NCBI GenBank assembly: GCA_013239625.1
Contig: MU053520.1
Span: 1,021,103-1,085,102 of the forward strand
From: Lama guanicoe
Taxonomy: Eukaryota
DNA length: 64,000 nucleotides
Direction of reading: 5' to 3'
Positions 2,904 to 64,000 of the stretch are shown here, one piece after another. The notes beneath the pieces were generated by a model. It made no database searches, was not told where the DNA came from, and saw only the letters and a program-made list of their open reading frames with translations. The first letter of the stretch is position 1; each line of letters starts with the position of its first letter. The position numbers and the translations under genes are program-made.

Positions 2904-3323
2904 AAGAACTATTCTCCTATACTCACATTGACTATCCTGGGTTTGGGGAGACAGACCTGATTCCAAACATTCTCTCCACATTACCTTCCAAGATTATTGT
3001 TTCTTATCAGATTTAAAAATGTTGGGGTAAAGTGGGGAATTCATAAAATAAAGATAGGACATACATACTTGAACAAATCTGCTTTCCTTCTCATTCCTCC
3101 TGTCTTCCCCTCCTCTCCTCACAGAGGATGGCTAATCTCATCAAGCTGATGAAGAAAATGTGGTCTAAATTATACAATTCACACTACCATGTAAATGGCT
3201 GGCTTGGAATTGTATTAAGTCAGCTAATCATATTCCCTTGTTAAAAGCAGCTTGTTAAATTAAATGAATGGATACTTTAATTAAAAGTATTTCAGCCAAG
3301 TAGATTATCAGAGCTGGGAGGCC

Positions 3324-3807
3324 TGACACAAGCCCAGACTTGTTCTGCTCACCATATAACAGGTCAATAAATCAAGAAGCAAGCTGTTGAAGCAAGGAGT
3401 CACAGAAAGCCAGAAGACCAAGAAAATGCTGGACTCATGTCCTAGAGAACCATCTTACCCAAGTCAGAATTCAGGTTCCTTTTATATTAAGAGAGGAGGG
3501 GGTGTAGTTGGTTGTTACAAATTTCTTGGTGTCAGAATCCTTTGATCTTGCAGCTATCCAGATAGGTAAGGTCACAATGTTTCTGTAAACCTCCAATAAG
3601 ACAGATCTTATTCTTTGTTCTGCAACTTTTTGTCTCTATATGAATGGGAAAATGTTATATCCTTGAAGGTCAGAGCCTTGAGAATGGGCTATCTTGTATA
3701 TTTCCTTATATGTTTCCAAGTTGGCTCCATTAAGCATGACTAAGTACAGGTAACAGAGCAAAAGGAACATCTCTAATATGGAGTCAGATTCATTCTTCCC
3801 TATTTCA
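3324..3807 (-). repeat. 3' LTR of provirus
   Basis: It aligns by eye with 8396-8914 and is preceded on the minus strand by the purine-rich gacagtggggact (PPT-like, ~3808-3820). Confidence 0.92.
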
Positions 3808-4175
3808 AGTCCCCACTGTCAATGTCCATTCCACAATCTTGTGGAAAAAGGGGTGATGACTATTCTGGCTACTTCCTTCTGAACAGGGGTGATGAGGGGG
3901 TGATCATGGAATGGAGTTGATCAGCCCTGGAAAGAAAACATTCCTTAGAATCTTTAGTCACTAGCGCAATCTTCTTTGCTTCTTCATCTACAACTTCTTG
4001 AACCTGATGAAGTCACTTAGTACTTTGTTTAACTTGGGGTTTTTGTTCCAGTTCCCAATACAAACCTATTAATTTTACCTTTCTGACTGTGCCATAATTA
4101 CAATAGATTCCTCTGTTATTTATTTGGAAAAGATTAAATGAATAGTTTGACACTTTTCCAGCTATAAAAAAATTA

Positions 4176-4660
4176 TTTAAGGAGGGCATTACCACTCTGG
4201 AGGGTTTTTTTTTTTTTGCTGGGGTGGGATATGGGTCTGCCCATCCTGAAAAAGAGTCCACAAACACTAGCAGGTACATGAAACTTCCTGCAGCTTGAGT
4301 CATTTGAGCCCTCTGTGGGGCAGGTTCCTCTGTGTTGAGTCCCCATTGCGGGAGGTCTGACAGCAATCTTTAGGTTATTTTTAGCACAAATCATGCAATT
4401 CTGGGTTACTCACTGAATGATTTTTTGTAGGTTAGGCCCCCCTTCCATAATTTTGATACCACTGCAAGGTGGTATCTCTCCCATAATGAGTACTATTATG
4501 AATGCGCCATAGTATAGTGTCCAGGAATGTCTCAGGGATCAAGACAATTCCTTGTGCACTACATGGCCAGCCAGGCAAGGCATAATCAAGAGTGAAACCC
4601 CACTCTTTGGCCTTCTCTCTGTCCTTTTTCTGAATATGCTGCCTGGCATTTTGACAGGTC
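4176..4660 (-). pseudogene. pol: ERV integrase N-terminal and core remnant
   Basis: HHCC-like pieces (IHNSTHYG ... ICAKNN) and a core motif YLLVFVDSFSGW; it is frameshifted and truncated. Confidence 0.85.
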
Positions 4661-4699
4661 ATTCTGTGGAAGAAGGGATTCTAACATAGCTTGATAGTT

Positions 4700-5726
4700 G
4701 CCTTAGCAAATCACCCACAATTGGAGTAAAAGTCCATTGTACGATACTAAGTTTCTTAGGTTCCCTAGCCAACATTTCCCTAAACAGGGTAGGGAACTTC
4801 TTAACTTCTTGAGGTAGGACTGTCCAGCAATTCTGTTGGACTACTTGTGTTTTGGGGTCCTGCCACGCAGAAGCAAATAAGAATGCAGGAAAAAAAATCT
4901 TTCAAGTCCCAAAGTGAGAGCCAGCCATATTTTCCTGGATTAGTTGTGAGCAGGGCATATGGATTAGGCACTAACAGGGTGTAAGTCTTGGACCACTTCA
5001 TTAATAGCCCTCAAGTCTTGGACAAAGTGATACTCTGCTGAGTTTGGTTTTCTGCCTGGGAGAACAAGGGTGTTGTACGGGGACCTATGGGGTGGAATCA
5101 GTCTTGTTTTTGAGAAGTTTTCTAAAATTGGCTGAATTCCCTTTTGGACCACTTGCCTCTGAGGATATTGATTTATATTAGGTGCCCGATCCTCCCTTTT
5201 TAACGGGATCTGCATTGGCCATGTGGCTTTGGCCTTCCCCAGCGTGCCATCAGCCCACACTTCTGGACTTACCCTGTAGTAGACCCCGAGGGGAAAGAGC
5301 TCTGTCTCCTCCTCTGGGGTTTTCATGAGTGCCATCTGTGGACTTAAAGCACGTTCTGGTGGAACTCTGATGTTAAGTTCTTCTGGCAAAAATGTTACTT
5401 GAGCATTTAACTTACAAAGGAGCTCTCTGCCCAAAGAGGGATTGGGTACTCTGGCACATATAAGAAACTATGATTCAGGGTGAAGTCTCCTAGTTGGCAT
5501 TCTGGAGGTTGTTAAGAATGAACAATTTTGTAATTCTCAAGAGACTCCCATGACCGGGATGGACTGAGGTATTTTCTGTGCCAAGTTAGTGTTTGAACAC
5601 AGAGTATGTTGCACCAGTATCACTCAGAAAGTCAGTCAGCTCATATTTCATTGTCAGTTTGACCCAGGATGTCTGTGGGGTAATTGGGCATGGGCGTCTC
5701 AAGTCCAAGGGAGCCCCCAGGCTTCT
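4700..5726 (-). pseudogene. pro-pol: ERV protease and N-terminal reverse transcriptase remnant
   Basis: FLSDTGATYSV (DTGA at 5610-5621), GRELLCKLNAQVTF, SPYNTLVLP..YHFVQDLRAIN, VPNPY, DLKD and WTVLPQ. The YxDD region is degenerate at ~4710-4730 and no RNase H is seen. Confidence 0.92.
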
Positions 5727-7974
5727 TCATTCATAATCAGAGTGCTTCTTTCTTTCTACTATGTGAGAAGCTCTCATCTTTCTTTTATGGTTTTCCTAGA
5801 TCAGATTCATAAGCAGGTAAAATACATATGCTGAGGGGTGCCATCAACAGAGCTATGCATTAGAAAGATAAGAGGCATCTCATTGGTAGAGCATTGATAC
5901 AAGAAGCCACCTAAAGGAAGCCCCATCACTAGTCCCAGCCCAGAAGTTCTCAAGACTTTCCAATGCTGTGGCCACATTATGTGGAAATGCCTTTGCAAGG
6001 ATAGAAGAAGATTCAGCTCTTGCTGTGGGGAAACTTACTGCATCAGTTATGCTCACCAGAAAGGACATAGCAATAAACACTGGTCTTTCCCATACATCAG
6101 AGAGAACTGTAACTCTTCCTGAGATGAACATTCCTGCTACTAACATAAATTTTGCTCCAACGTGTACAAGATATTTTCTAAATACCAAAGATGCCAGAAG
6201 TCAGAGCGTAACATCCAAAGATCGTACCAGTATTGCTGGCTCCATTCTTTTCAGCCTCTGTGGGGGGGAAAAGTTTCCACATCATGGAAACTAAGTTAGT
6301 GAATGCTTCAGCAGCATTTAAAATCTGTATTAGACAGATTCAGTACAAATATCTGTTCTCTTGAAAGCTACCTGGGCCCTTACACTTCCTGGAGGGCCAT
6401 CACTTTTTAATGTGCAAGACTAGGGGCAGGTCCTAAGAGCACATAGCATCTTGTAGTGATTAAGTTTCCAAAAACCAGAAGTAATTTCCTCAGCTGTGGT
6501 ATTTTTTCCCTGAGGTGGCCCAATGGTGAAGAAATGGCATAGCACAGTGTCAAACCCAAGAATACCAGTCCCACATATCCAGCCAGTAAATTAAACTGCT
6601 CCAAAACAAAGAGGGACAGCGTAGGGTCAAGGAAGCTAAAATATGAGCTGAGTGAGGTAATGATGAAGGCTGTAAGGGCAACCTTGGGTAAAGTGATCAG
6701 TTTCCAGAATGAGTTGTTCCCTGTTTAACACTTTAAAACAAACACCTACCAATTGAGAAGGGTTCCTTCCAAATGCACGATCTAATTTTTGCAATTTTTT
6801 CACATTTACCATTCTAGCATTTTCAGGGGCCTTGGATCTGCTCTAGACCTGATGAATTCGTTCCAAAAATTCAGAGAGATCTTCATTTGTTTTTTGCTGG
6901 ATTCCTTTAATTTTGTTAAACCCAGCCCATTGGCTATTTGCATTTAGGACCCCTGGGGTTAATAGTGTAGGGGAAATTGTCCTGTGCCAGGAGTGGACCC
7001 CCGTCCAAAGTGGGTGCCCTATCAGGTCTTAGATGACAATACTAGACCAGGCCCCTGTGCCTCAGGGACTAACACAGGATTTTCAATTGATACCTATAAG
7101 GAGGGGAAGCCAGTCTGACCACTTCCTGAGCCCCAGCATTGGCAATCGGGGCTGGTTGTGTAGGAACGGGAGGCACTGGAAAGGGTGGATACCTTGGCAT
7201 AGTGGCTGCAGCGGATGGGGCAGCTAGCTCAGCCAGAGGAGCGAAGGTCTGAAGCAACATAACCTAACTCGTGTTCTAGTCCTTTTCTTATTTTCCCTGA
7301 TATAACAGTACAAATGCTTGCACATAGGGCATTCCATCATTCTTCCCTGATTTTCACAGAATATCTATAATTGCAGGATTGTATAAAGACACCATTCCTC
7401 AACATTTTATTGTAAAACCATAAATGGCAACTGATCCTCCCTAACCATTTTGCCTTGGCATCAACCAACCAGGCTGAATTCTGGGCTGAGGCTTTTAGTG
7501 ATTGTAGGAACCAAGTGGAAGCTTTCCATTCTCTCACTCTCAGACAAGAACAGACAGAGTTGGCTTTCTTTGTTTCTTTGTTTGTTGTTTTTGTTTATCT
7601 ATTTCTTTCCTCCATTTGCCATCAGTAAAAATTTTAAATATCACAAAACTGACTTGGAGACATGGAACCAGAACAAAATGTATGAGAAACCCAAAGGACA
7701 AACAGAAAACCCTAAATAAACCCTCACATTTATTTAGTGTTGGGGTTTTACATGCACAGTGACACAGCAGACCACACATGATATAATTAACACAGCAAGG
7801 GTGGCAGTATATGAAGGTAACCCTGCATAGATCCCTTGTTGGAGATCCAAATGGATACTGTAGCCACACATTGTTCATCTTCCTCTTAGTCATGGGTTCA
7901 TAGATGTAATCAGGCGACTTATCCGAAATGTGTCTCAGAGGACTTTCTTTAGGGAGAGTTGAAATAGTCCCCAT
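5727..7974 (-). pseudogene. gag: ERV gag remnant (MA, Pro-rich region, CA), interrupted by inserts
   Basis: MGTISTLPKESPL..NNVWLQY, YTILQL*IFC..PYVQAF, a Pro-rich PPY segment, MHR-like IQQKTNEDLSEFLERI and KKLQKLD..PSQLV..FKVLN. The TGA at 5727-5729 is in frame with the protease. Confidence 0.88.
5793..6723 (-). pseudogene. SLC18B1: Circularly permuted, intronless SLC18B1 retrocopy (circRNA-derived)
   Basis: The peptides SFWKLITLPKV..FLDPTLSLFVLEQFNLLAGYVGLVFLG..LLVFGNLIT..LLGP..HIK are followed by REQIFVL..EAEKNGASNT..YLVHVGAKFMLVAGMF..SSSILAKAFPHNVAT..GGFLYQ..YESD. They match human SLC18B1 as I recall it, but in permuted order, with frameshifts and small deletions. Confidence 0.92.
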
Positions 7975-8372
7975 TTTTTTAAAGACAGAAATACAAGACA
8001 AACAAAACACAAGTAGTTCACACAAATGCTAGCATCCATTCATGAAACAAACCAGCTCACAAACTGAGTCCAAGTCCAGCAACTATTTCCTCTCTCCAGC
8101 AGGGAACTCCGCTCAAATATGAAACAAATCAGTTTATTCCACAGGAAAAAGCCCCAAGCAGAGAGAAGTAGACTTTCCACCTGTACACACGGGAGCAACT
8201 TATCCTACTGCTTGGAGCCCGTCAGCTCCCAGCTGTTGAGTCCTTCTCCAACTGCCAAGCACTGGGGCAGCTGGTGCCACTTTGGGGAATTTTGAAGGGA
8301 AGACCCTCAGGACAAAGTGTCCTGGCAGCTGCTGGGGCCTTAAACCAAAATTCCCCAACCAAACAGCAAGGT

Positions 8373-8390
8373 CTCTGGCTATCTTAGCCA
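8373..8390 (-). promoter_or_regulatory. Degenerate primer-binding site
   Basis: tggctaagatagccagag lies a few bases inside the 5' LTR. It loosely resembles a tRNA-Arg PBS (TGGCGAGCCAGCCAGGAG), but the tRNA identity is uncertain. Confidence 0.55.
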
Positions 8391-8395
8391 AAATT

Positions 8396-8914
8396 TGTTA
8401 CCGAGTACAAACTTATTGTACTCAGTGTACAACAGGACAATAAATCAGGAGGTGAGGGGTTGGGGCAAGGAATAGTGACTTTATGCAAAAAGCCAGCAGA
8501 CCAAGAAGGCAGGGGACTAATGTCCTAGAAAACTGTCTTACCCAAGTTAGAATTCAGGCTCCTTTTACACTAAAAGGGGAGGGGGCAGGACTGGATATTG
8601 CAAACTTCTTGGTGTCAGAATCCTTTGTTCTTACTGCTGTCTACGTAGGTTAGGTCACCATGTTTCTGTAAACATTCCACAAGACAAATGTTATGCTCTG
8701 TTCTGCAACTTTTTATCTCTATGTGGGTGGAATAGTGTTATATCCTTAAAAGTCAAAGCCTTGAGAATGAGCTAACCTGCATATTTCAGGTTATAGGCAA
8801 TATTCTTTTACAAAAGGTGCAGAACCAGCAGGATTAAGCACAGCAAACAGAGCACAGGGTTAGAGATAAAGCAACAGATCTAATATGGAGTCAGATTTGT
8901 TCTTCCCTATTACA
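8396..8914 (-). repeat. 5' LTR of provirus
   Basis: It has tgtta...taca termini and is ~80% identical to 3324-3807 over a ~250-bp hand-aligned block. Confidence 0.92.
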
Positions 8915-8970
8915 GGCCTACCTGGGGTCCAACTGATCTCTTTAACCTCTCAAGTTTGTCTGAGGAGCCA

Positions 8971-14900: not shown

Positions 14901-15884
14901 TTTCTTTAGATTATTTTTTTTTGATTGCTTAAAGTAGGTTAGATTATTTTTATTAAATACTATCAATATCACATATTGCTTTGAATAAATACAAATCCCA
15001 ACAGTACATGTATATTTATTCATGTAATTTGTTTTCCTCAGTAGATTGTAAGCATTCTGAGAGCTCACACCACAGCTTTCTTGTTTCTGGCTCTGTCCCC
15101 AACTACTGCATTATTTTTTCACCTAGGTTAATACATATAACATATTCATATATAATGTCTAAGAATCTTTTTTTTGTTTGTTTTTTATAATAGTTAATTT
15201 AAAAGATGACATTTTGTCCTGTTTCATGGCTACAGTATTTCTTTCTTATTTCTCCATAGACTTTTCTTTTAAAAAAAATGTTTTGCTCTGTTCCAAGCAT
15301 TGGCCCTGTTTACTCTGATTTCATATTTTGTTTAGCTGCACATTTGTTTGCTTTGATCTTTTTCTTATAAAACTCTTTATTTAGATGGTTGGTGATCATT
15401 GGCTCCTAGTCACAACTAAGAATGTACCTTAGAAGCAAGACACTAAAAAGTTGCTATGGAGCTCTGTATGTTTTGGAATAATCTTAGTCAGCAGGAAGGC
15501 TGCATGAACGGGTAAGTGAATGCTGACCCCGTATTGTCAGTATCTCTTTGTATTTACTCTTAGACTGGCTTGCTTTCCCAGAGAACAAGCCTTCAATCTC
15601 CTGTCTGAGGTAGCATAGTAGTAGAAGGCATTAACATGACTGGCAACATGTCAGTGGCTGACAGGATAAGGGAAACTGGGCACATCATTATTCCTTATTT
15701 AGAGTTGCAAGTAATCTGCCTTTTTTAAAATACCATATTGCTTCATTTGATATTCATCTTTGCCAAGGGTTCCCTGAACCTCAGTGGTTAACCAGAGACC
15801 AATCATCAATTTTTCTATCATGTTGAGAGAAGTTGCCTGGCCTCAGTGGGACAAGATCTGGGCACCTATTTGTTCTGTATAAAA

Positions 15885-17030
15885 ATTTGCATCCAATTAA
15901 ACTTAAAATATTTTGCACAGCGAAAGAAACCATAAACAAAATGAAAAGACAAGCTATGGAATGGAAGAAAATATTTGCAAATGATGGAATCAACAAGGTA
16001 TTAGTTCCCAAACTATACAAACAGCACATACAGCTTAATATTTAAAAAGTAAACAATCCAATCTTTGTAGATCTAACAGACATTTCTACAAAGAAGACAT
16101 ACAGATGGCCAACAGGCACATGAAAAGATGCTCAACATTGTTAATTATTAGAGAAATGCAAATCAAAACTAAAATGAGGTATCACCTGATACCAGTCAAA
16201 ATGGCCATCCAAGAAGTCTACAAATAATAAATGCTAGAGACGGGGTGGAGGAAGAGGAATTCTCCTACAATGTTGATGGGAATGTAAATTGCTGCAGCCA
16301 CTACGGAGAACAGTATGGGAGTTCCCTAAGAAACTGAAAATAGGGTTACCCTATGATCCAGCAAAGCCACTCCTGGGCATATATCCAAAGAAAACCCTAA
16401 TTCAAAGAGATAGTGCACCCCCAATGTTCATAGTAGCACTATTTATAATAAAGATATGGAAGCAACTTAAATGTCCATCGACAGATGAATGAATAAAGAT
16501 GATGTGGTATATATCTTATATTAAATGTCATATATTAAAATACAACAGAATATTATTCAGCCATAAAAAAGAATGAAATAATGTCATTTGCAGCAACATG
16601 GGTGAACATAGAGATTATCATTCTAAGTAAAGTAAGTCAGACAAAGACAAATATCATAAGATAGCACCTATATGTGAAATCTTAAAAAAATGATACAAAT
16701 GAACTTACTTACAAAACAGAAATAGACTTCATAGACATAGAAAAAGAAAAAGAAAAACAAAAACAAAAACAAAAACAAAAACTATGGTTACCAAAGGGGA
16801 AAGGGGAGTGAGGGGTAAATTAGGAGTTTGGGCTTAACATATATCCACTACTATATATAAAATAACCTACAAGGGCCTACTGTGTAGCATGGGGAACTAA
16901 GGGAATTACACTCAATATATGTAATGAACTTTAATGGAAAAGAATCTGAGAAAAAATGAATTCTTTGCTCTACACCTGAAACTCACACAACATCATAAAC
17001 CAACTGTACTTTAAGAAATAATAAATAAGT
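15885..17030 (+). mobile_element. 5'-truncated LINE-1 3' end
   Basis: KLKIFCTAKETINKMKRQ and QPLRRTVW..LPYDP motifs, an L1 3'UTR and an A-rich tail; no convincing TSD found. Confidence 0.93.
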
Positions 17031-34812: not shown

Positions 34813-37032
34813 CAGGCATAGAGGGAACATACTCAGCACAAACCCACAGCTAACATCATACTCAATGGTGAAAAGCTGAAAGCATTCCTTCTAAGATCAA
34901 GAACAAGACAAGGATGCCCACTCTCACCACTTTTATTCAAAATAGTTTCGGAAGTCATAGCCACAGCAATCAGAGAAGAAAAAGAAAGAAAAGGAATCCA
35001 ATTGGAAAGGAAGAAGTAAAACTATCACTGTTTGCAGATGATACGATACTACACACAGAAAAGTCTAAAGACACCAGAAAATTACTACAGCTCATCAGTG
35101 AACTTGGTAAAGTTGTAGGTTACAATATCAATATACAGAAATCTGTTGCATTTCTATATACTAACAATAAAATATCAGAAAGAGAAATTAAGGAAGCAAT
35201 TCCACTTATTATTGCATCAAAAAGAATAAAATGCCCAGGAATAAATCTACCTAAGGAGGCAAAAGACCTGTACTTGCAAAACTGTAGGACACTGATAACA
35301 GAAATTGAAGATGACACAAACAGATGGAAAGGTATACTGTGCTCTTGGATTGGAAGAATCAATATTGTTAAAATGGCCATATTACCCAAGGTGATCTACA
35401 GATTCAATGCAATCCTTACCAGAATATCATTGTATTTTCCACAGAACTAGAGAAAATATTTTTAAACTTGTATGGAAACACAAAAGATCCCAAATAGGCA
35501 TAACAATCTTGAGAAAGAAGAAGATATCTGGGGGAATCATGCTTCCTGACTTCAGACAGTACTACAGAGCTACAGTAGTCAGAGCAGTATTCTACTGGTG
35601 CAAAATCAGACACATAGATCAATGGAACAGGATAGAGAGCCCAGAAATAAACCCACACACTTAGGGTCAATTAATTATGACAAAGGAGGCAAGAATATAC
35701 AGTGGAGAAAAGATAGTCTCTTCAATAAGTGGTGCTGGGAAAACTGGACAGCTACATGTGAAAGAATGAAATTAGAACATTCCATAATGTCATATATAAA
35801 AATAAACTCAAACTGGATTATAAAACTTAAATGTAAGACTGGACACTCTAAAACTCCTAGGGAAAAACTTAGGCAAAAACTCTTTGACATAAATTGAAGC
35901 TATATTTTTTGGATCCATCTCCTAAAGTAAAGGAAATAAAGCAAAAAAAACAAAAAACAAACAAACAAACAAAAATTGGGGCCTAATTAAGCTTATAAGC
36001 TTTTGCATAGCAAAGGAAACCATTGACAAAATGAAAAGACAATTTATGGAATAGGAGAAAATATTTGCAAATTATATGACCAATAAGGGATAAATAGCCA
36101 ATATATATAAACAGTTAGTGCAGCTCAACATCAAAAAAAAAAAAAGACACAAGTTCAAAAAACGGGCAGAAGAACTGAATAGACATTTTTCCAATGAGGA
36201 AATACAGGTGCATAACAGGCACATGAAAAGATCTCAGCATCATTAATTATCAGGGAAATGCAAATCAAAATCACAATGAGATATCACCTCACACCTATCA
36301 GAATGGCTATCATCAAAAAATCTACAAATAACAAATGTTGGCAAGGATGTGGAGAAAAAATAACCCTCATACAGTGTTGATGGGGATGTAAATTGGTACA
36401 ACCACAGTATGGAGGTTTTTCAAAAGACTGAAAATAGAATCACCATATGACCCAGCAATTCCACTCCTGGGTATATATTCACTAATTCAGAAAGATACGT
36501 GAGCACCAGTGTTCATAGCAACACTATTTACAATAGCAAAGAAGCAATCTAAATGTCTATCAACAGATAAATGGATAAAGAAGATGTGGCAATATATACA
36601 TGATGGAACACTACTCAGCCAGAAAAAATGATGAAAATTTGCCATTTGTAGCAACATGGATGGACTTGGAGGGCATTATGCTAACTGAAATACATCAGAC
36701 AAATAAAGACAAATACTACATGATATCATTTATACATGGAGTATAAAAATACAACAAACCAGTGAATATAACAAAAAAGAACCAGACTCACCTATACAGA
36801 GAACAAACTAGTGTATACCAGTGTGGGGAGGGGAGGAACAAAGTGTTGGATATAAGATAGGCTCAAGGATGTATCATACAATTAGGAGAATAAGGCCAAT
36901 ACTTTGTAATTACTGTAAATGGAAAGTAAGTTTTAAAATTTATTAAAAAAGTTATAAAGAAAAAATTAAATTGAAATTGACAATTAAATAAAATAAAAAA
37001 ATAAAAATAAATAAAATAGCAAAAAAAAAAAA
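34813..37032 (+). mobile_element. 5'-truncated LINE-1 (RT to 3' end)
   Basis: LSLFADD RT motif, [12 protein letters not shown] and IDQWNRIE, plus a long A-tail. The TSD is gttttcccactct (34800-34812 / 37033-37045). Confidence 0.96.
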
Positions 37033-38324: not shown

Positions 38325-40194
38325 AGATCATCTTGGTTTTAAAGGTGAGCATCGTCTGAGGACAGTTGTGCATGATGAGGGTTCTGCCAATGCTCAGGAG
38401 TTCTTAGCTAGCCTGGCTCTGCCTGGGCTGCCTGTCTCCAGACTGAATGCTCCCTGGATGCCTGTGAAAACTGAATTAGTTCATCACTGGAGAACTTGAT
38501 ATCTATTCCAAAGTACAAGGAATGTGCATGGGTTGGGGCAAGAAGGAACCAAGTATTGTGCCTGGGCTGCCTTCTCTATGCCTTAGAAGGAAAAGGTTCA
38601 GTACCTAAGACCAGGGTAGAAGAAAGGAATGTGTCTCTTAGAAATTATTCTGTCCTACGAGGGCATCTCATGAGAACATGCACATTCCTTTACTGTTCAT
38701 CTCTACTTCACTTCTTCCAGCTTTTCCTTTCTCTTTGCTTTCAGGTTTTCTTTTACTCCTCATCTAACCTCTTTTTGCTTCTTAAAAACTCCAAATTATT
38801 TCTGTGAATACTGATGACTCTTGCTGTTACCTAGATGGAGGAGGGCATTGGTTGTAATGGAGAACAGTGAATGCTTTCCTTTGCAGTCTTCCTGCTTGTG
38901 ACCCACACAGCTATCCACTCACACACACAAGCACAGACTCTAGAGTGTGCAGAAGGTGGGAGTCCATTCCCTCAGGACCATAAGGGGGAACTTTCTCACA
39001 GCTCTGTGGCCAGTGTCTCTGAGAGTTTCTAAAATCAGGCATTGTGCCAAAAAGAAGATAGATTTCCTTCAGGGAACTCACATCTGCTCTACAACAAAAA
39101 TTTCAGCTCCTCTAATTAAAGTCACTCTGATCCTTTTCCTTGTGTCCTAATTTCTTGATGGTTTTATGATAAGAGAGAGTTTTCCTCCTCCCATGACAGA
39201 ATTACTTTGCAAAACATCTTATGTTACCTGTTAACGAATGCTGCTTTACCTAAACTGCTTCTAATTACAAAGCTCCCCACCACAGTGTGAGAGATGGCCA
39301 CTTTCAATGCATCAATTTCTTTAGAATCTTTCTGAGAAGAATTTATTCTCTCTCAATGTGGCTTTCCATTTAAAAAACTATTCACTAAAACACAACATTG
39401 TGCAAAGGGCTGAAGAGAAAAAAATGAGATAAAGTCCTTGTCCACAGAGAGATTAAGTTACAGTAAAGGAGACAGATAAGAAACAGGCAAACAAAACATG
39501 AACAGATTTTGATTACTTATGTGAGCAATCGGAGATTGTGGTAAAGAGATCAAGATGACATACTCTAAATAGGGTTATCAGAAGAGGAGGTAACTTTTGG
39601 GTTAAGATCTGGAGATAAGGTGGAATCAGTTATGCAAATAGTTGAGGAGAGGGCCTTTCCAGACAGAGGGTACAGAAAATGCAGAGTCCCTTTAAAGTCA
39701 CACACACATGGCATGATCTTGAAAGTATAGAAAGCTTGTGAAAAAAGAAAAAGCATCAAGGGAAGAAGGAAAACAGGTAAGATGGCAAAGTTCTACAGAG
39801 GTCAAGCCGATCAGGCTACGAAAATGAGCTGATTTTATCCTAAGTGCAAAGAGGAAGTTATCAAAGGATTTTTTTAAACATTTTTTATTGATTTATAATC
39901 ATTTACAATGTTGTGTCAAATTCCAGTGTAGAGCACAATTTTTCAGTTATACACAAACATATGTATACTCATTGTCACTTTTTTTTCTCTGTGAGCTACC
40001 ATAAGATCTTGTATATATTTCCATGTGCTATACAGTATAATCTTGTTTATCTATTCTACAATTTTGAAATCCTGTCTTTCCCTACCCACCCTCTGCCCTC
40101 CTTGGCAACCACAAGCTTGTATTCTATGTCTATGAGTATGTTTCTCTTTTGTATTTATGCTTTGTTTGTTTTTGGTCTTGTTTTTGTTTTTGTT

Positions 40195-43100
40195 TTAGAT
40201 TCCACATATGAGCAATCTCATATGGTATTTTTCTTTCCCTTTCTGGCTTACTACACTTAGAATGACATTCTCCAGGAACATCCATGTTGCTGCAAATGGC
40301 ATTATGTTGTCGGTTTTTATGGCTGAATAGTATTCCATTGTATAAATATACCACTTCTTCTTTATCCAGTCATCTGTTGATGGACATTTAGGCTGTTTCC
40401 ATGTCTTGGTTATTGTAAATAGTGCTGCTATGAACATTGGGGTGCAGGTGTCATCCTGAAGTAGGGTTCCTTCTGGATATATGCCCAGGAGTGGGATTCC
40501 TGGGTCATACGGTAAGTCTATTCCTAGTCTTTTGAGGAATCCATACTGTTTTCCACAGTGGCTGCACAAAACTGCATTCTCACCAGCAGTGTAGGAGAGT
40601 TCCCCTTCCTCCACAGCCTCTCCAGCATTTGTCATTTGTGGATTTTTGAATGATGGCCATTCTGACTGGTGTGAGGTGATATCACATTGTAGTTCTGATT
40701 TGCATTTCTCTGATAATTAGTGATATTGAGCATTTTTTCATGTGCCTATTGATCATTTGTATGTCTTCCTTAGAGAATTGCTTGTTTAGGTCTTTTGCCC
40801 ATTTTTGGATTGTTGTTTGGTTGTTTCTTATTAAGTCGTATGAGCTGCTTATATATTCTGGAGATCAAGCCTTTGTCAGTTTCNNNNNNNNNNNNNNNNN
40901 NNNNNNNNNNNNNNNNNNNNNNNNNNNNNNNNNNNNNNNNNNNNNNNNNNNNNNNNNNNNNNNNNNNNNNNNNNNNNNNNNNNNNNNNNNNNNNNNNNNN
41001 NNNNNNNNNNNNNNNNNNNNNNNNNNNNNNNNNNNNNNNNNNNNNNNNNNNNNNNNNNNNNNNNNNNNNNNNNNNNNNNNNNNNNNNNNNNNNNNNNNNN
41101 NNNNNNNNNNNNNNNNNNNNNNNNNNNNNNNNNNNNNNNNNNNNNNNNNNNNNNNNNNNNNNNNNNNNNNNNNNNNNNNNNNNNNNNNNNNNNNNNNNNN
41201 NGATTGCCTTGGGCAGTGTGACCATTTTAACAATATTGATTCTTCTAATCCAAGAGCATGGGATATCTTTCCATTTTTTAAAGTCTTCTTTAATTTCCTT
41301 CATCAATGGTTTCTAATTTTCTGTGAATAATTCTTTCACCTCCTTGGTTAGATTTATTCCTAGGTATTTTATTACTTTGGGTGCTATTTTAAAGGGGATA
41401 GTTTCTTTACTTTCTTTTCCTGTTGATTCATCAATAGTGTAAAGAAATGCAACTGATTTTGAACGTTAAACTTGTAACCTGCTACCTTGCTGAATACTTC
41501 GATCAGCTCTAGTACTTTTTGTGTGGACCTTTTAGGGTTTTCTATACATGTCATCGGCATATAGTGACACTTTGACCTCTTCTTTTCCAATTTGGATGCC
41601 TTTTATTTCTCTCTCTTGCCTGATTGCTGTGGCTAGGACTTCCAAGACTATGTTGAATAGGAGTGATGATACTGGGCATCCTTGCCTTGTCCCAGATTTT
41701 AGTGGGAAGCTTTTGAGTTTTTCACCATTGAGTATTATGCTGGCTGTAGGTTTGTCATATATAGCTTTTATTATGTTGAGATATGTTCCCTCTATACCCA
41801 CTTTGGCGAGAGTTTTTATCATAAATGGATGTTGAATTTTATCAAATGTTTTTTCTGTATCTTTTGAGATGATCATGTGTTTTTTGTTCTTTCTCTTGTT
41901 GATGTGATGTATTATATTGATTGATTTGTGTATGTTAAACCACCCTTGTGTCCATGGGATGAATCCCACTTGGTCATGATGTATAATCTTTTTTATGTGT
42001 TGTTGAATTCTATTTGCTAATATTTTGGTGAGGATTTTGGCATCTATATTCATCAGCGATATTGTCCTATAATTCTCTTTTTTGATAGTGTCTTTGCCTG
42101 GTTTTGGTATCAGGATGATGGTGGCTTCATAGAATGAGTTTGGGAGTATTCCCTCCTTTTCAATCTTCTGGAAGACTTTGAGAAAGACTGGTATGAGTTC
42201 TTTGTATGTTTGGTAGAATTCCCTGGTGAAGCTGTCCGCTCCTGGACTTTTATTTGTAGGGAGGTTTTTTATTGCTATTTCGATTTCATTTCTAGTGATC
42301 GGTTTGTTCAAGTGGTCAGTTTCTTCTTGATTCAGTCTTGGTGGACTGTATGTTTCCAGAAACTTGTCCATCTCCTCTAAGTTATCCAGTTTTGTTCCAT
42401 ATAGTTTTTCATAATATTCTTGTATGATATTCTGTTTTTCTATGTGATTTGTTGTAATTTCTCCATTTTCCTTTCTTATTTTGCTAATTTGTGCTCTCTC
42501 TTTTTTCTTCTTTGTGAGTTTGGCCAAAGGTTTGTTGATTTTATTTACTTTTTCGAAAAACCAGCTTTTGGTTTGGTTGATTTTTCCTATGGTCTTGTTA
42601 ATCTCTATTGTATTTATTTCCTCTCTAATCTTTATAATGTCCTTCCTTCTGCTGCCTTTTGGGGCTTTCTGTTCTTCTTTTTCTAATTCACTTAGCTGGT
42701 GGGTTAAATTGTTTATTTGAGATTGTTCTTCTTTTGTAAGGAAGGCCTGTATCACTATAAACTTCCCTCTTTGTAGGGAAGCCCTGTATCACTATAAACT
42801 TCCCTCTTAGCACTTTGCTGTGTCCCGTAGATTTTGAGTGGTTGTGCTTTCATTGTCATTGTCTCAAGGTATTTTTTAATTTCAGCTTTGATTTCCTCAT
42901 TGACCCATTGTTTTTTTTAACAACATATTGTTTAATCTCCATGCTTTCCTTCTTTTCTCCTTTGTTTCTCCGTTGTTGATTTCTAGTTTCATGGTATTGT
43001 GGTCAGTAAAGATGCTTGAGATAATTTCTATCTTCTTAAAATTGTTGAGGTTTGTTTTGTGCCCAAGTACATGATCAATCCTAGAAAATATTCCATGTGC

Positions 43101-43683
43101 ACTTGAAAAGAATGTATATCCTATTTTGAGGGGATGTAATGCTCTGAAAATATCCACCAAATAATTTTTCTATTGTATTATTTAATTTCTCTGTTGCCTT
43201 ATTTATTTTTTGTCTGGAAAATCCATCTAGCGATGTTAATGTGGTGTTAAAATCTCCAACTATGATTGTATTTCCGTCAGTATCCCCCTTTATCTCTGTT
43301 AGTAATTGCTTTATGTATTTAGGAGCTCCTATATTGGATGCATATATATTAATGAGTGTAATATCCTCATGTTGTATCACTCCTTTAATCATTGTAAAAT
43401 GCCCCTCTTTAGCTTTCTTTATGGCCTTTGTTTTAAAATCTATTTTGTCTGAAATCTGTACTGCAACACCTGCTTTTTTGGCTTTTCCATTTGTGTGGAA
43501 TATCCTTTTCCATCCTTTCACTCTCAATGTATATATGTCCTTCACCCTAAAGTGGGTCTCTTGTATGCAACATATTGAAGGTTCTTGCATTATTATCCAG
43601 TCTGCCACTCTGTGTCTTTTGACTGGAGCATTCTGTCCATTAACATTTACAGTAATTAATGATAGATGTGTGTTCGTTGCCAT
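40195..43683 (-). pseudogene. L1 ORF2 (EN/RT), frameshifted
   Basis: [54 protein letters not shown] and LYADD, split over several frames. Confidence 0.95.
40884..41201. other. Assembly gap (318 N)
   Basis: Run of n inside L1 ORF2. Confidence 1.
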
Positions 43684-44058
43684 TTGGAACTTATCTTTGC
43701 AGTTGATTTGGTATTTCTCTTTGTTCCTTTCTTCTTCCTTTTGTGGTTTGGTAATTTTCCTTTGTATTATCATGGATTTTATTTAGTTTTTGTGAGTCCC
43801 TTGTAGGTTCTTGGCTTGTGGTTACCCTTTTCTGTAAGTCTATTAGCCCATTACTATATCATGAACCCATCCTACTGAAAACAAAATATTTTAAAAAGAA
43901 AGAAAGAAATACTCTATATTTTCTTGCTTCCCTCTCCCACTCTTAATGATTTAGATGTCTTCTTTTACAATTTTGTGTTTATTTCATTTGTAATTCATGA
44001 GTTATCACCTATCCAGTTATGAGTTTCTCATTTCTGTATCACCCTGCTGCTTTTCTAT

Positions 44059-44949
44059 TTAGAGTAGACCTTTTAGCATGGGTTTAGTGTTGCTAAACTC
44101 TTTTAGTTTTTGCTTGTTTGTGAAATTCTTTATGTCTCCTTCTATCCTAAAGGATAGCCTTGCTGGATAAAGTATCCTAGGCTGCATCTTTTTGTTGTTG
44201 TTGTTGTTTTGATTCAGGACTTTGAATATATCTTGCCACTCCCTTCTGGCTTGTAGTGTTTGTGTAGAGAAATCAGCTGAGAGCCTTAGAGGGGTTCCCT
44301 TGTAACTCACTCTTTGCTTTTCTCTTGCTGCCTTTAGGATTATTTCTTTATCCTTGACTCTGGCCATCTTGATTATGATATGTCTTGGTGTGGGTCTGTT
44401 TGGGTTTTTCCTCTTTGGGACCCTTTGAACTTCGTGTACTTGGATATCTGATTCCTTCTTTAAATTTGGGAAGTTTTCAGTCATGATTTCTTCAAAAACC
44501 TTTTCAATCTTGTTTGATCTTTCTTCCCCTTCTGGGACTCCCATTATGCAAAGTTTGGCATGCTTTGTGTTATCCCATAGGTCCCTTATGTTGCTTTCCT
44601 TTGTTTTTATTTATTTTGCAGTTGTTCTGATAGGGTACTTTCTGTTGTCATGTCTTCTAGGTCACTAATTTGTTCCTCTGCATTATCTAAGCTGCTTTGC
44701 ACAGCCTTTAGATCCATTCTCATCTCAGCCAATGAGTTTACCAGTTCTACTTGGCTCTTCTTTATAGCTTTGATTTCATTTCTGACATATTTTATATCAC
44801 TAAACACGATGTCTTTTAGTTCCTTCAATACTTTGATCATCTGTTTTTGAAATCTTGATCTAGTAGGCTATTGATGTCTATTTCATTGATCGTTCTTTCA
44901 GGGATTTCTCTTGTTCTTTTAATTGTGAATGGTTTCTCTGCTTCTTCAT
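44059..44949 (-). pseudogene. L1 ORF1, frameshifted
   Basis: A coiled-coil fragment (44607-44840) and GVPEGEE..ENFPNL..TPRHIIIK..ARREW..YPARLSF (44059-44544). Confidence 0.95.
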
Positions 44950-45074
44950 CTTGCTCATATCTCTCTGGCACTGTGGCTTATGGAGTATCAGTTATCTATT
45001 GTGGTCCTTAAAGGAATTTATTTATTTATATATCTAATGCCTATGTAGGAATAAAACTTAAAAAATAAAAAAGG

Positions 45075-46570
45075 AGAGAAAGAGAAAAAGAATTTTAAAA
45101 GAAGGGAAAAAAAGTTTGAAAACACTGTATAATCAATTATAGAAGTGCAATTTGAATCAGACTAGCATTCGATTTGAGACGTCTTTTTTAAAAACCCTTT
45201 TAAAAAAAGGAGAAAAGATCAAAAAATGACATTTGAAACCTATTTATAATCAAAAACAGGAGATCAAAATAAAAAAAAATGAAAATGAAATCAGGTGGAT
45301 TTTTTAAAAAATAATAATAATGTAAATAGTTTACAAGAAAAATTTAAAAAGGAATTAAAACTAGAAGCATATGCAATTGTTTAGAAAGTAGAAATTAAAA
45401 AGGTAATAGAAAATAGAACAGATAATAAAAGATAAAATAAAGAGAGAACTTTAAGAGAAGGGAAGAAAAAAAGATTTGAAAACAGTGTATAATCAAGTAT
45501 AGAAGAGCAACTTGAATCAGACTAGCATTCGAGTTGAGACATATTTTTAAAAATCCTTAAACAAAAGAAGGAAAAAAGATCAAAAAATGATATTTATAAC
45601 CTATTTATAATCAATAACAGGCAGTCAAACCCAAAAGAAATGAAAATGAAATCAGATGTATTTTTTAAAAAATAATAATGTAATTACTTTAAAAGAAAAA
45701 TTTAAAAGGAATTAAAACTGGAAGCATATACAATTGTTTAGAAAGTAGAAATTAATAAGACAATAAAAATAGAACAGATAAAAGAAGATATGATAGAGAG
45801 AGAATTTTGAAAAAGAGGTTTGGAAACAGTGTATAATGAGTAATTGAAGAGCAAGCTGAAGCAGAATAACAATCGGGTTGAGACGTCTCTTGAAAATCTT
45901 TTTAAAAGGAGAAAAGAGGAAAAAAATATATTTGAAACCTGTATATAATCAGTAACAGTAGATCAAAACCAAGAGAGAGAAAAATGACACGATGTGGATT
46001 TTTTAAAATAATAATTGTGAGCTGGCCTTGAGTTGAGTTAAGGCCGTGGGACCCAAGGCCATGGCCAGAGCCTTGAGATAAGTTAAGGCTGTGGGACTCA
46101 AGGCCACGACTACAGAGCATGTTTGTAGTATGCAGTAAATAATTGCTCCGCTCCTGTGTCAATTATATAAGATTTAGAACAAAGAAAATAGAAGTACACA
46201 TGTGCTAGAGATATTCTGTAAGCCTAATGAACAAAGAAACTCAGACCGCGCATGTGCTGACAGAAAACAGATAAAAGAAGGACAGGTGCATCATAGGCGC
46301 ACCTCCCTGTGGCAATGAAGTGTTGTTAACCCCATGGTGTCTCCGGCTGAAGTCTGTCCAGCATTATGGCAACTCCTCGTGCATTTTTTCGTTTGGGCAG
46401 CTCACCTCCTAGAACCCCACATCAGCCTCCCTTGGCTGACACAATAATAATTTTAAAAGAAAAATTTAAAAGGGATTAAAACTGGGAGGATATGTAATTG
46501 TTTAAAAAGTAAAAATTAAAAAGGTAATAGAAAATACAACAGGTAAGAACAGATTACAAAATAAAAAAAG
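45075..46570. repeat. Three ~350-bp AT-rich tandem units in the L1 5'UTR
   Basis: The anchor aaca(c/g)tgtataat recurs at 45121, 45481 and 45826. The third unit is split by a solo LTR. Confidence 0.9.
46016..46443. mobile_element. Solo LTR inserted in the L1 5'UTR
   Basis: tgtga...gacaca termini with an ataat TSD (46011-46015 / 46444-46448) and an abrupt GC shift. It has an internal ~44-bp direct repeat near its start. Confidence 0.85.
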
Positions 46571-48227
46571 GGAGTGGGGGGGTGTTCTCCTGAAGACTGT
46601 GTGCTCTTAATGAGAAGCCTTTCTGTCTTCGCCCTGTTTCATGAACTCAGCTTGCTGTTTCCAGAGGCCCTCCATTGGTGCCCTCCTCTGTGCTGCTCCC
46701 AGGGCCTGTCGGCAAGCAGACCACGCCCCCTCCCAGCACAGCATTCCTGCTGGAAAGGCGGAGGGGGGCCACCTGCCACCTCCCAGTGCCAGTCACTCTG
46801 CAGCTCCATGCCACTGTGCACTCTGTGATGCCGCACTCTCCGCCGTGGATCCATGCTCCGTAGGCTGGCCCTGGGAAGACCTCGGAACGGTCTGGCCCCT
46901 GCTCTGTGTCCAGACTCAGCTCCTTGTCTGTCCTGGCAGCACGAACTTTAGGAGGCACCAGGGCTGGAGGATCCTATCTGACTCAAGCTGCAAACAAGTC
47001 ACTGTCTGGCCTTTGAGGCTGCCGAGCCCCCAGGTGCAGATTCAGTTTTCGCCCCTGCCCCCACCTGGGTGCCAAGAGCTGGAGGATATGGTGGCTGCGC
47101 CTGAGCCCCACCTCTCCTCATGGAAAACCTTCCCTGGGTTTTCAGAGATGGGGTTATGCACCCTTCCCCCCAGGGCACATCAGCCGTGCTGTTTAATGGA
47201 GGGCCCAGGTTGTTCTGCCCTGTGCACCCACTCATCCACATTGCGCAGCTCCCTGCAGTCCCCCTGGGCTGGCAGCCATCTCCGTCCTCCGCCTGGCTCA
47301 GGCAGCCTGTCCTGGCCCCCAGCTCCCAGCTTGAGTCTCAGGCTGGGTGTTGCAGGGACACTCTGTGCCCATTTAACTTAGTTCTGTTGGTCAAGGGCTG
47401 CTCCATACAGATCCAAGCCTTGGAGGCTCCCCCTCTGTCCTGATGGCCTCTCCGTTGGAGAGAGGGAGACCCAGCAAACAAGTGTCAGCCCTCCTTTGCC
47501 GCTCCCTCCCTGCAGGACCCATTCCTCACTGTTTTACCTTTTCAGCTTTCTTTTTTTCCTTTCTCCTACCAGATTTTTGGTGTCTTTGTCTTTTGAAGAG
47601 GACAGTGTTCTTTCGGAGTTCCACAGGTGCTCTGGTTGGCTGAATGGGTCCGTGGATGTGAGTCTTGGTGTATCTGTGGGAGAGGGTGAGCTACGAGCAT
47701 CCTACTACTCTGCCATCTTGGCCTCATCTCTATCAAAGGACTTTTGAGGGGAGAGGGAGAATGTTACAACCTGAATTACATTTTTAAAATATATCTCTGG
47801 CTATTTGATTGATATTGAGTTTTAGGGGGATAAAAATAAAGCAGGAAGATGAGGTGGGATGGTCTTCCCTTAACTTATTCAAGAAATAAAAGTAGAGAAG
47901 AGTGTCATTGCAGAGGGCAAGAAACAGAGCAAATGTAGATACATTTTAGATGCAACTAATAGGACTTCCTGACAGATAAACAAGGAAAGAAAAAAAAATG
48001 AGTAACAAGGAAAGGAAAAAATACTCAAACATAACTGACCTTCTTGATCTCTATTATTGCTGTTTTTAAAGTCATTTAACCTTCCTGTGCCTTAGTTTTC
48101 TCAACTTTAAAAATGAGGGAATGTTACCTATTTCATGGAGCTATTTCTAATTACTCTTAATTAACATATAACAAGAATTTAGAACATCACTTGACATATA
48201 ATATGTGCTAAATAACTGCTGGCTTTA

Positions 48228-57962: not shown

Positions 57963-60900
57963 TTTTTTATTGACATACAGTTGGTTTACAATGCTGTGTT
58001 AACTTCTGGTGTACAGCATAATGCTTCAGTCATACATGAACATACATATATTCATTTTCATATTCTTTTTCACCATAAGTTACTACAAGATATTTAATAT
58101 ACTTCCCTGTGCTATACAGTATAAAAGTGTTGTTTATCTATTATATATATATTTGTATCTGCAAATCTCGAACTCCCAATTTATCCCTTCCAACCCCTTC
58201 CTCCCTGGTAACCATAATTTGTTTTCTATGTCTATGAGTCTGTCTCTGTTTTGTAAATAAATTCATCTGTGTCTCTTTTTTTATAAGATTCCACATATAA
58301 GTGATATTATACGGTATTTTTACTTCTCTTTCTGGTTAATGTCACTTCAAATGACATTCTCCATGTCCATCCATGTTGCTGGAAATGGCATTATTTTATT
58401 TTTTTTATGACTGAATAGCATTCCATTGTACAAATACACCACATCCTCTTTATCCAGTCATCTGTCGATGGACATTTAGGTGGTTTCCATGTCTTGGCTA
58501 TTTAAATAGTGCTGCTATGAATATTGGGATGCATGTATCTTTTTGAGTTAAGGTTCTCTCTGGATGTATGTCTGGGAGTGGGACTGCTGGATTATATGGT
58601 AAGTCTATTTTTAGTCTTTTGAGGAATCTCCATATTGTTTCTATACTGGCTACACCAATTTACATTCCCACCGGCAGTGTAGGAAGGTTCCCTTTTCTTC
58701 ACAGCCTCTCCAGCATTTACTGTTTGTGGACTTTTGAATGATGGGCATTCTGACTGGTGTGAGGTGATAACCTCATTGTAGTTTTGATTTGCAATTCTCT
58801 GATAATTAGTGATATTGAGCATTTTTTCATGTACCTATTGGCCATTTGTATGTCTTCATTGGAGAATTGCTTGTTTAGGTCTTCTGCCGATTTTTGGATT
58901 GGGTTGTTTGTTTTTATTATTAAGTTGTACGAGCTGTTTATATATTCTGGAAATTAAGCCCTTGTCAGTCTCATCTTTTGCAAATACTTCCTCCCATTCT
59001 GTTGGTTGTCTTTTTGTTTTGTTTACCATTTCCTTTGATGTGCAAATGCTTATCAGTTTAATTCGGTCCAATTTTTTTTATTTTTGTTTTATTTCTATTT
59101 CCTGAGTAGACTGCCCTAGGGGAACATTGCTGAGATTTATGTCAGATAATGTTTTGCCTGTTTTCTTCTAAGATTTCTTGTCTTATGTTTAAATCTTTAA
59201 GCCATGTTGAGTTTACTTTTGTGTATGGTGTGAGGGAGTATTCTAACTTTACTGAGTTACGTGCAGCTGTCCAGCTATCCCAATACCATTTGCTGAAGAG
59301 ACTGTCTTTTCTCCATTATATGTCTTGTCTCCTTTGTCAAAGATTAATTAATCAAAAGTTTGTGGGTTTTTTTCTGGGTTCTTTATTCTGTTCCATTGAG
59401 CCATATGTCTGTTTTTTGTACCAATACCATGCTGTTTTGATTACTGTAGCTCTGTAGTATTGTCTGAACACTGGGAGGTTTATTCCTCCAGCTTCATTCT
59501 TTTTCTTCAGTATTGCTTTGACAATTCTGGATCATTTTCAATTCCATATAAATTTTAGGAATATTTTCTCTAATTTTGTGAAAACTCTTCTCGGTGATTT
59601 GATAGGGATTGCATTAAATCTGTAGATTGACTTGGGCAGTATGTTCATTTTAACATTAATTCTTCCAATCCAAGAACATGGGTTATCTTTCCATTTTTTA
59701 AGTTATCTTTAATTTCTTTAATGAATGTTTTGTAGTTCTCCTTGTATAAGTCTTTTGCTTCCTTGGTCAGATTTATTCCTAAGTATTTTATATTTTTTAA
59801 TACAATTTTAAAAGTGATCATTTCTTTTTCTGATATTTCATTGTTAGTGTAAAAAAACCCACTGATTTCTGTATTTTTTTTCTTTTTACATTTTTTTATT
59901 GAGTTATAGTCAGTTTACAATGTTGTGTCAATTTGCAGTGTAGAGCATAATTTTTCAGTTATACATTAACATACATATATTCATTGTCACATTCTTTTTC
60001 GCTGTGAGCTACCACAAGATCTTGTATATATTTCCCTGTGCCATACAGTATAATCTTGTTTATCTATTCTACACATGCCTGTCAGTATCTACAAATTTCA
60101 AACTCCCAGTCTGTCCCTTCCCAACCCCCACCCCCTTGGCAACCACACATTTGTATTCTATGTCTGAGTCTGTTTCTGTTTGTATTTATGGTTTTGTTTT
60201 GTTTTTTTTAGATTCCACATATGAGCGATCTCATATGGTATTTTTCTTTCTTTCTGGCTTACATCACTTAGAATGACATTCTCCAGGGACATCCATGTTG
60301 CTGCAAATGGTGTTATGTTGTCAGGTTTTATGGCTGAATAGTATTCCATTGTATAAATATACTTCTTTATCCAGTCATGTCAATGGATTTCTGTGTGTTA
60401 ATGTTGAATCCTGTTACCTTGCCAAATTATTTTATCAGCTTATTAGTTTTTGTGAGGATCATTTTAGGATTTTCTATATATACTATCATGTCATCTGCAT
60501 ATAATGACAAATTTCCCACTTCTCTTCCAATTTGGATCCCTTTTATTTCTTTTTCTTGTCTAATTGTTATGGCTAGGACTTCCAATACTATATTGAACAG
60601 AAGTGGTAAGAGTGGGTATCCTTGTCTTATTCCTGATTTTAGCAGGAAGGATTTTAACTTTTGACTGTTGAGTATTATGCTGGCTGTAGGTTTGTCATAA
60701 AATAGCTTTTATTATGTTGAGATATGTTGCCTCTATACCCACTTTGGTGAGAGTTTTTATCATAAATGGGTGTTGAATTTTATCAAAAGCTTTTTCTGCA
60801 TCTGTTGAGATGATGTTGTGATTTTTGTCCTTTCTCTTGTCTATGTGGTATATCACATTGATTGATTTGCATATGTTGATCTATCCTTGTGTCCCTGAGA

Positions 60901-63900: not shown

Positions 63901-64000
63901 TAGTTACCTACTGTGGTCTTGAAGGGATGTTTTGTTTATTTGTTTTTTGTCTGCTTTTATTTAAAGTGGGAGAATTCCTGCATAAACTCTGTGCATCTAA
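57962..64000 (-). mobile_element. Long decayed LINE-1 (ORF1 and ORF2), 5' end beyond the window
   Basis: ORF1 fragments (ENFPNI, TPRHITIK, ARREW; ATG ~63862), ORF2 fragments (ATG ~62592; IIVGDF) and a 3'UTR. Confidence 0.95.
59878..60385 (-). mobile_element. Younger truncated L1 nested in ORF2 of the older L1
   Basis: Its 3'UTR is the same type as at 39869 and 38063. The TSD core is gatttctgt (59864-59872 / 60386-60394). Confidence 0.92.

Follow-up and report, generated by a model that had tools for sequence, protein, structure and literature searches.

Within a 64,000 nt stretch of the guanaco genome (Lama guanicoe, contig MU053520.1, positions 1,021,103 to 1,085,102), the whole of which is referred to here as the window, a defective provirus contains an intronless and rearranged piece of the cellular gene SLC18B1. 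The reading we favour, with a probability of roughly 0.7, is that a class I endogenous retrovirus (ERV) has had about 190 nt of its gag replaced by one lap of SLC18B1 exons 2-9, that this cargo was captured once by a double template switch of reverse transcriptase (RT) on a co-packaged circular RNA (circRNA), and that the product was then copied to about 20 loci. The locus family supplies both junctions, natural insert-free relatives, the viral stretch that was replaced and many independent copies.

An SLC18B1 lap in a class I provirus

The insert, at 5789-6723 on the minus strand of the window, is SLC18B1 without introns, in sense orientation to the provirus and with its exons in the order 7 (part)-8-9|2-3-4-5-6-7 (start) (Table 1). 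A search with the insert returned 74 matches, nearly all of them named SLC18B1. The parental gene, whose exons match the Vicugna pacos protein nearly letter for letter, occupies 14 coding-exon blocks on contig C5673, and the cargo maps to eight of its exons. Both junctions quoted in the initial annotation are present on the minus strand, and the insert is indeed, as was proposed there, an SLC18B1 circle opened within an exon at Pro-Gly codons; the exon is coding exon 7, and the opening lies at its base +10. In a dromedary (Camelus dromedarius) SLC18B1 isoform of 375 aa (P0045), the annotated end falls directly after exon 9, the back-splice donor exon.

Table 1. Features of the provirus and its SLC18B1 cargo in the window
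Feature	Position	Strand	Remark
Provirus, class I ERV	3324-8914	-	two LTRs and target-site duplication
5' LTR (TG...CA), class I ERV	8396-8914	-	
Decayed gag 5' of the insert, MA to C-terminal CA	6724-7975	-	stops and deletions; 5' end approximate; matches P0076 residues 14-98
5' junction word CAGGGAA	6717-6723	-	SLC18B1 exon 7 +10 to +16 and viral site A
SLC18B1 exon 7, bases 10-137	6596-6723	-	114/128 identical to host
SLC18B1 exon 8	6497-6595	-	
SLC18B1 exon 9	6404-6496	-	
Back-splice joint	6403-6404	-	exon 9 donor to exon 2 acceptor
SLC18B1 exon 2	6256-6403	-	
SLC18B1 exon 3	6171-6255	-	
SLC18B1 exon 4	6097-6170	-	
SLC18B1 exon 5	5961-6096	-	
SLC18B1 exon 6	5808-5960	-	
SLC18B1 exon 7 start (first 16-19 bases)	5789-5807	-	runs into 3' junction word AGG(G/A)AAA, common to viral site B
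Last gag codons past the zinc knuckle, and gag stop	5727-5788	-	stop at 5727-5729; matches P0077 residues 153-174
Decayed protease, in frame behind the gag stop	5465-5726	-	DTG motif at 5613-5621
pol remnants (RT start, part of integrase)	4013-5464	-	large deletions
3' LTR (TG...CA)	3324-3807	-	K2P to 5' LTR 0.245
4-bp target-site duplication GGCC	8915-8918 and 3320-3323		

Searching the guanaco genome gave 32 matches, made up of proviral copies and parental exons, with only one parental exon set, and 20 further proviral loci carry the cargo with junctions in common with the window, bringing the set analysed here to 21 loci. The circle measures 946 nt (the sum of exons 2-9), and the cargo amounts to one lap plus an overlap of 7-10 nt. 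It starts at exon 7 +10 in 15 of the 21 loci (+10 to +13 in 17) and ends at +16 to +21 in 17; loci departing from these points are truncated or were overrun by local alignment. Were the end point uniform, a cargo ending 0-10 nt from a full lap would be expected with p about 0.012. The joint between exon 9 and exon 2 is readable in 18 of the 21 loci and falls exactly on the donor and acceptor, and the alignment shows neither a gap nor added bases there; ten of these 18 retain AAGAG|GT, as in the host. Neither exon 1 nor exon 10 sequence was found in any of the 21 loci (background scores 16-28); for comparison, in the 19 near-full copies exon 9 scores 37-155 and exon 3 scores 84-152. The single lap in most of the loci and the exact joint bear out the circRNA template that the initial annotation had put forward. 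In the window itself the 5' junction has acquired later changes of its own and is 3 nt shorter than in most copies.

Natural relatives of the provirus carry Gag_p30, one CCHC knuckle and an MLV-like RNase H (Pfam PF02093, PF00098 and PF00075), the best PDB matches of the last being RT/RNase H p80 of the MLV/XMRV type, and hence the element was assigned to class I (gamma-like, ERV1). TG...CA LTRs, a 4-bp target-site duplication and a gag stop with an in-frame, DTG-bearing protease behind it, an arrangement noted earlier and present here, are further points of likeness. Near-full LTR pairs were seen at L097, L100 and L102 beside those of the window. The insert carriers differ from a class I ERV in that they have no knuckle and have lost most of pol, and are thus a non-autonomous derivative. 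Six ORFs from the window gave no Pfam match, being too decayed.

The replaced gag stretch and the junction words

Though it was initially proposed that excising the insert would restore gag in frame, relatives that have no insert do not support this. Genome searches with the viral flanks alone found 18 insert-free loci, four of which have no downstream flank. All 14 with both flanks hold 118-205 nt between them (167-205 nt in 13 of the 14), and in the window gag has stops upstream of the insert. Among the loci from six own-genome searches, in which the best candidates were scored and a rare intermediate could have escaped, no insert-free copy has abutting flanks and no carrier keeps the replaced stretch. 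The reading obtained by joining the flanks therefore fuses two separate sites and does not represent an empty site.

The replaced stretch encodes the capsid end and the CX2CX4HX4C knuckle of Gag. By DNA comparison it is present in none of the 21 insert loci versus 14 of the 18 insert-free loci, by protein comparison the knuckle is covered in none of the 21 carriers versus 15 of the 18, and all 12 genome matches of the stretch are insert-free loci. Two unnamed database proteins of the same ERV family, P0076 and P0077, have this part of Gag unbroken; the window matches them over residues 14-98 and resumes at 153-157, whereas their CCHC knuckle lies at residues 136-149 (Pfam zf-CCHC, E 3e-5 in P0077). 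A homologue search with the insert-free knuckle stretch as query returned nothing. The nearest insert-free relative, L109/L110, shares the short capsid deletion of the carriers and keeps the full 192 nt between the flanks. As insert-free relatives hold the knuckle stretch and carriers have none, the cargo replaced about 55-59 Gag residues (about 190 nt) and is not a mere interruption. The picture of a clean, reversible insertion is corrected accordingly: capture cost the virus its nucleocapsid knuckle.

A single microhomology was initially thought to have served for both entry and exit. The same circle word is indeed found both times, but each time with a different viral site; the two sites lie about 190 nt from each other and are similar. 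The circle word at exon 7 +10 is CAGGGAAACA. At the upstream site (site A), CAGGGAA is exact in 4 of 16 insert-free relatives and has one mismatch in a further 8. At the downstream site (site B), which lies in an A/G-rich region, AAGGAAAA is found in 5 of 13 insert-free relatives and close variants in three. The 3' junction has the viral form AGGA in 15 of 19 carriers and the host form AGGG in one. Microsimilarity thus extends over 7 nt at site A, and over 3 exact bases and an imperfect run at site B. For a random junction, at least 7 exact bases are expected with p about 0.0007 and at least 3 with p 0.05, so that the match at site A is strong and that at site B modest. Because the homology at site B is short and the copies have diverged by 12-24 % from the host gene, the switch points can be placed only approximately. 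Between the circle and the 1 kb of gag lying 5' of site B there are 56-88 other matches of at least 7 nt; hence, something besides homology must account for a return at the landing word.

Proposed route of capture and relation to known systems

Minus-strand synthesis proceeds 3' to 5' along the viral RNA. In the proposed route, a back-spliced circle of exons 2-9 would have been packaged alongside the viral RNA, and the junctions suggest that minus-strand RT departed from the viral template at site B, immediately 3' of the knuckle codons, and annealed to the exon 7 word. It would then have copied the circle backwards, through exons 6-2, the back-splice joint and exons 9, 8 and 7 to the landing word, an order that is seen in the product. 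There the template would have ended; the simplest cause would be an RNase H cut in the circle, made within the first RNA:DNA hybrid, though a stall at that hybrid would give the same product length. The nascent 3' end, bearing the same word, would have annealed some 190 nt upstream, at viral site A, and the knuckle would have been skipped. As the resulting element has no knuckle and little pol, it would have needed helper proteins in trans for its spread, during which it probably kept recombining with insert-free lineages. Co-packaging is supported by the finding, in the accessible text of a recent preprint, that retroviruses, HIV-1 and MLV included, package host circRNAs (bioRxiv 10.64898/2026.01.21.700838).

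The same final sequence would be expected if RT had used one viral site both to leave and to return and the 190-nt stretch had been lost separately, before or after, by deletion between similar viral words. Sites A and B are alike and the family has many internal deletions. However, neither intermediate was found (none of the 21 carriers keeps the stretch, and none of the 14 insert-free loci with both flanks lacks it), and L109/L110, though it shares the short capsid deletion, still has its full complement between the flanks. We regard such a two-step history as unlikely.

Distinctly unlikely, in our view, is that L1 target-primed reverse transcription (TPRT) copied the circRNA into an integrated provirus with a 190-nt target-site deletion, and that amplification of this provirus as a defective ERV followed. 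It is conceivable that L1 causes target-site deletions and stalls at the first hybrid, and an A-rich run lies behind the 3' junction. That run is viral, being present in insert-free relatives, and there is no A-tail at the 3' junction, as had been pointed out when retroviral template switching was initially preferred over TPRT, a preference with which our analysis agrees. No target-site duplication surrounds the insert either; the repeated word is the cargo's own, and viral sequence was lost at the site. Microhomology at both ends, together with replacement of an ORF in sense, is the signature of template switching, and an L1 insertion must in addition have struck one of the few proviruses still transcribed. 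L1 is the main source of mammalian retrocopies, according to the part of Tan et al. 2016 available (PMC5131818), but needs a 3' poly(A), as cited by Dong et al. 2016 (PMC4897178).

A template other than a circular RNA is very improbable, be it a linear RNA in which exon 9 is joined to exon 2, arising by tandem exon duplication or trans-splicing, or a DNA circle used in break repair. A non-colinear joint is by itself no proof of a circle, a caveat made for other cases (PMC4897178), and four contig-only RNA runs yielded no back-splice of a host circRNA. Against this, a linear template does not predict exactly one period (p as given above), closure exactly at splice sites is not expected of a DNA circle, and the genome search found no second set of parental exons.

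The double switch on a co-packaged circRNA joins two phenomena, each of which is known. CircRNA-derived pseudogenes, including 33 high-confidence mouse circRFWD2 copies beside MMERVK10C-int, resemble the cargo in being intronless, with an exact back-splice joint, circle exons only, no poly(A), many copies and LTR-element flanks (Dong et al. 2016, PMC4897178). Their mechanism near LTR sequence was called mysterious and left open in that study, the main text of which contains no junction or empty-site analysis, and a 2017 review, in its accessible part, merely suggests LTR involvement (PMC5408686). In contrast to those copies, and as far as the main text and legends of Dong et al. allow the comparison, the present family has a camelid class I (gamma-like) ERV as its carrier, with both junctions and the replaced stretch resolved, a cargo of one whole lap and copies that all trace to what is likely a single capture. 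In LTR-mediated retroposition, as presented by Tan et al. 2016 (PMC5131818), who also cite the HERV-K/FAM8A1 case, spliced host RNA likewise replaces part of an internal ORF; the two switch points each show microsimilarity of about 6 nt, hallmarks of L1 are missing and later spread is non-autonomous. The cargoes there are colinear mRNA pieces, and the word "circular" is absent from the main text, whereas here the template would be a circle and the same cargo word is found at both switches. The HIV-1 and MLV work supplies the co-packaging step of the model; its accessible text shows packaging, not reverse transcription or germ-line capture, and does not use the term "template switch" (bioRxiv 10.64898/2026.01.21.700838).

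What appears to be new is the resolved double switch on a circle, a suggested one-lap rule and the ancient SLC18B1 family. No report of the SLC18B1 case was found in a literature search that had most subscription papers and repeat databases outside its reach. We offer a wider version of the model tentatively, at rather less than even odds: retroviral RT may land on a packaged circle, RNase H may open the circle at the landing site and exit may thus be forced after one lap. If so, one lap plus a few bases, the same cargo word at both ends and a replaced viral stretch could form a general signature that would recur in other ERVs, among them mouse circRFWD2/MMERVK10C, and the present capture might have taken place near the artiodactyl root, from a circle that was present some 50-60 Myr ago in embryo or germ line. 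The model makes the testable prediction of exactly one lap, dependent on RNase H, and the family would provide a dated record of an ancient circRNA.

Spread, age and present state of the copies

The copies differ from the host gene by 12-24 % and from each other by a median of 19 %, and their tree is largely star-like. In the 12 copies for which the start of the 5' LTR was located, the 5' flanks are unrelated (0 of 66 pairs alike). Capture therefore preceded amplification, given the shared junctions of the 21 loci and the unrelated 5' flanks of these 12; the initial annotation had supposed as much in placing capture before integration. For these 12 copies the flanks rule out that segmental duplication produced the copy number, and an assembly artefact is ruled out by junctions common to 21 diverged loci. 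Duplication is accepted for L109/L110 and, as probable, for L107/L108 (94-97 % alike), and the small contigs L020 and L022, which resemble duplicates of L093, were excluded from the count. Successive non-autonomous sub-lineages are indicated by shared structures: L089, L091, L092 and L097 have in common a deletion from protease into integrase (window 5465 to about 4480), and L096, L098, L099, L101 and L103 share another structure, with no match to the 5' LTR.

In a tree of 1.1 kb of upstream gag, all 18 carriers tested fall in one branch (100/98); L101, L105 and L107 lacked the region, and L110 and L122 were left out as a duplicate and as truncated, respectively. Insert-free L109 nests within the carrier branch of this tree, as sister to L108. 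The tree of the downstream flank (29 rows x 326 columns) is mostly unresolved, but a single clade of 16 carriers is rejected (p-AU 0.005) and L108 groups with insert-free L116, L124 and L126. We read these conflicts as probably reflecting later recombination with helper lineages or between duplicated copies. L107-L110, on contigs C8017 and C3854, form a mosaic, fast-evolving cluster: L109 and L110 are 97.5 % alike over 5.3 kb in opposite orientation, the cargoes of L107 and L108 are 94 % alike and lie on a long branch, and L107 and L109 are 95 % alike at the 3' end. This looks like a duplicated, recombining region. Elsewhere, the 5' LTR and leader of L090 (1-657) and L093 (992-1648) are 98.6 % alike, though the rest of both copies is 87 % alike, which points to recent gene conversion or an assembly effect.

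The K2P distances between paired LTRs, obtained for four carriers, are 0.16, 0.18, 0.21 and 0.245. At a rate of 2.2e-9 substitutions per site per year, these correspond to about 36-56 Myr with CpG decay included, and capture would date to roughly 35-60 Myr ago. The cargo has residues common to the artiodactyls tested and not found in seven outgroups, a comparison set with no horse sequence (I34 in 12 of 17 copies, T245 in 19 of 19). Camelid-only residues are absent from it (L45 in 13 of 16 copies, K60 in 17 of 19 and A22 in 7 of 10), as is F239 of other artiodactyls, L being found in 11 of 13 copies. These residues would put the donor gene either close to the root of the artiodactyls or on the early part of the camelid stem.

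The cargo and gag are in different frames in most copies, and the product is a Gag truncated at the capsid end, with no nucleocapsid knuckle. In the related copies L093 (2792-3277, plus strand) and L090 (2873-3235, plus strand), a small junction change joins the gag frame to that of SLC18B1, giving Gag-SLC18B1 open stretches of 161 and 121 codons. No selection was seen on these two in-frame chimeras, their pN/pS of 0.39-0.46 being no lower than in the rest. Overall, pN/pS of the cargo to the host is 0.35-0.8 in 39 of 40 segments and 1.15 in one, stops and indels are present, and the cargo now appears to be decaying, with no sign of selection. A search of other species with the chimeric junction peptide gave one full-length-chimera match (P0075), nearly the same as L092, and unnamed Gag pieces.

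Among the contigs of the four RNA runs, examined at exon 9, none joins exon 9 to exon 2 with host alleles; the sole contig across this joint has proviral letters. Contigs of run X1, examined at host exon 9 (L032:4748-4839), resemble proviral copies L090 and L091, one of them crossing the exon 9-exon 2 joint; as intron is covered too, they need not be transcripts. Proviral copies of this kind can pass for circRNA back-splice reads.

Elsewhere in the window, L1-like pieces were recognized by eye at 1760-2900, 15800-16700, 35000-37000, 40000-46600 and 58000-64000, as was a tandem array with a unit of roughly 350 nt at 45100-46560.
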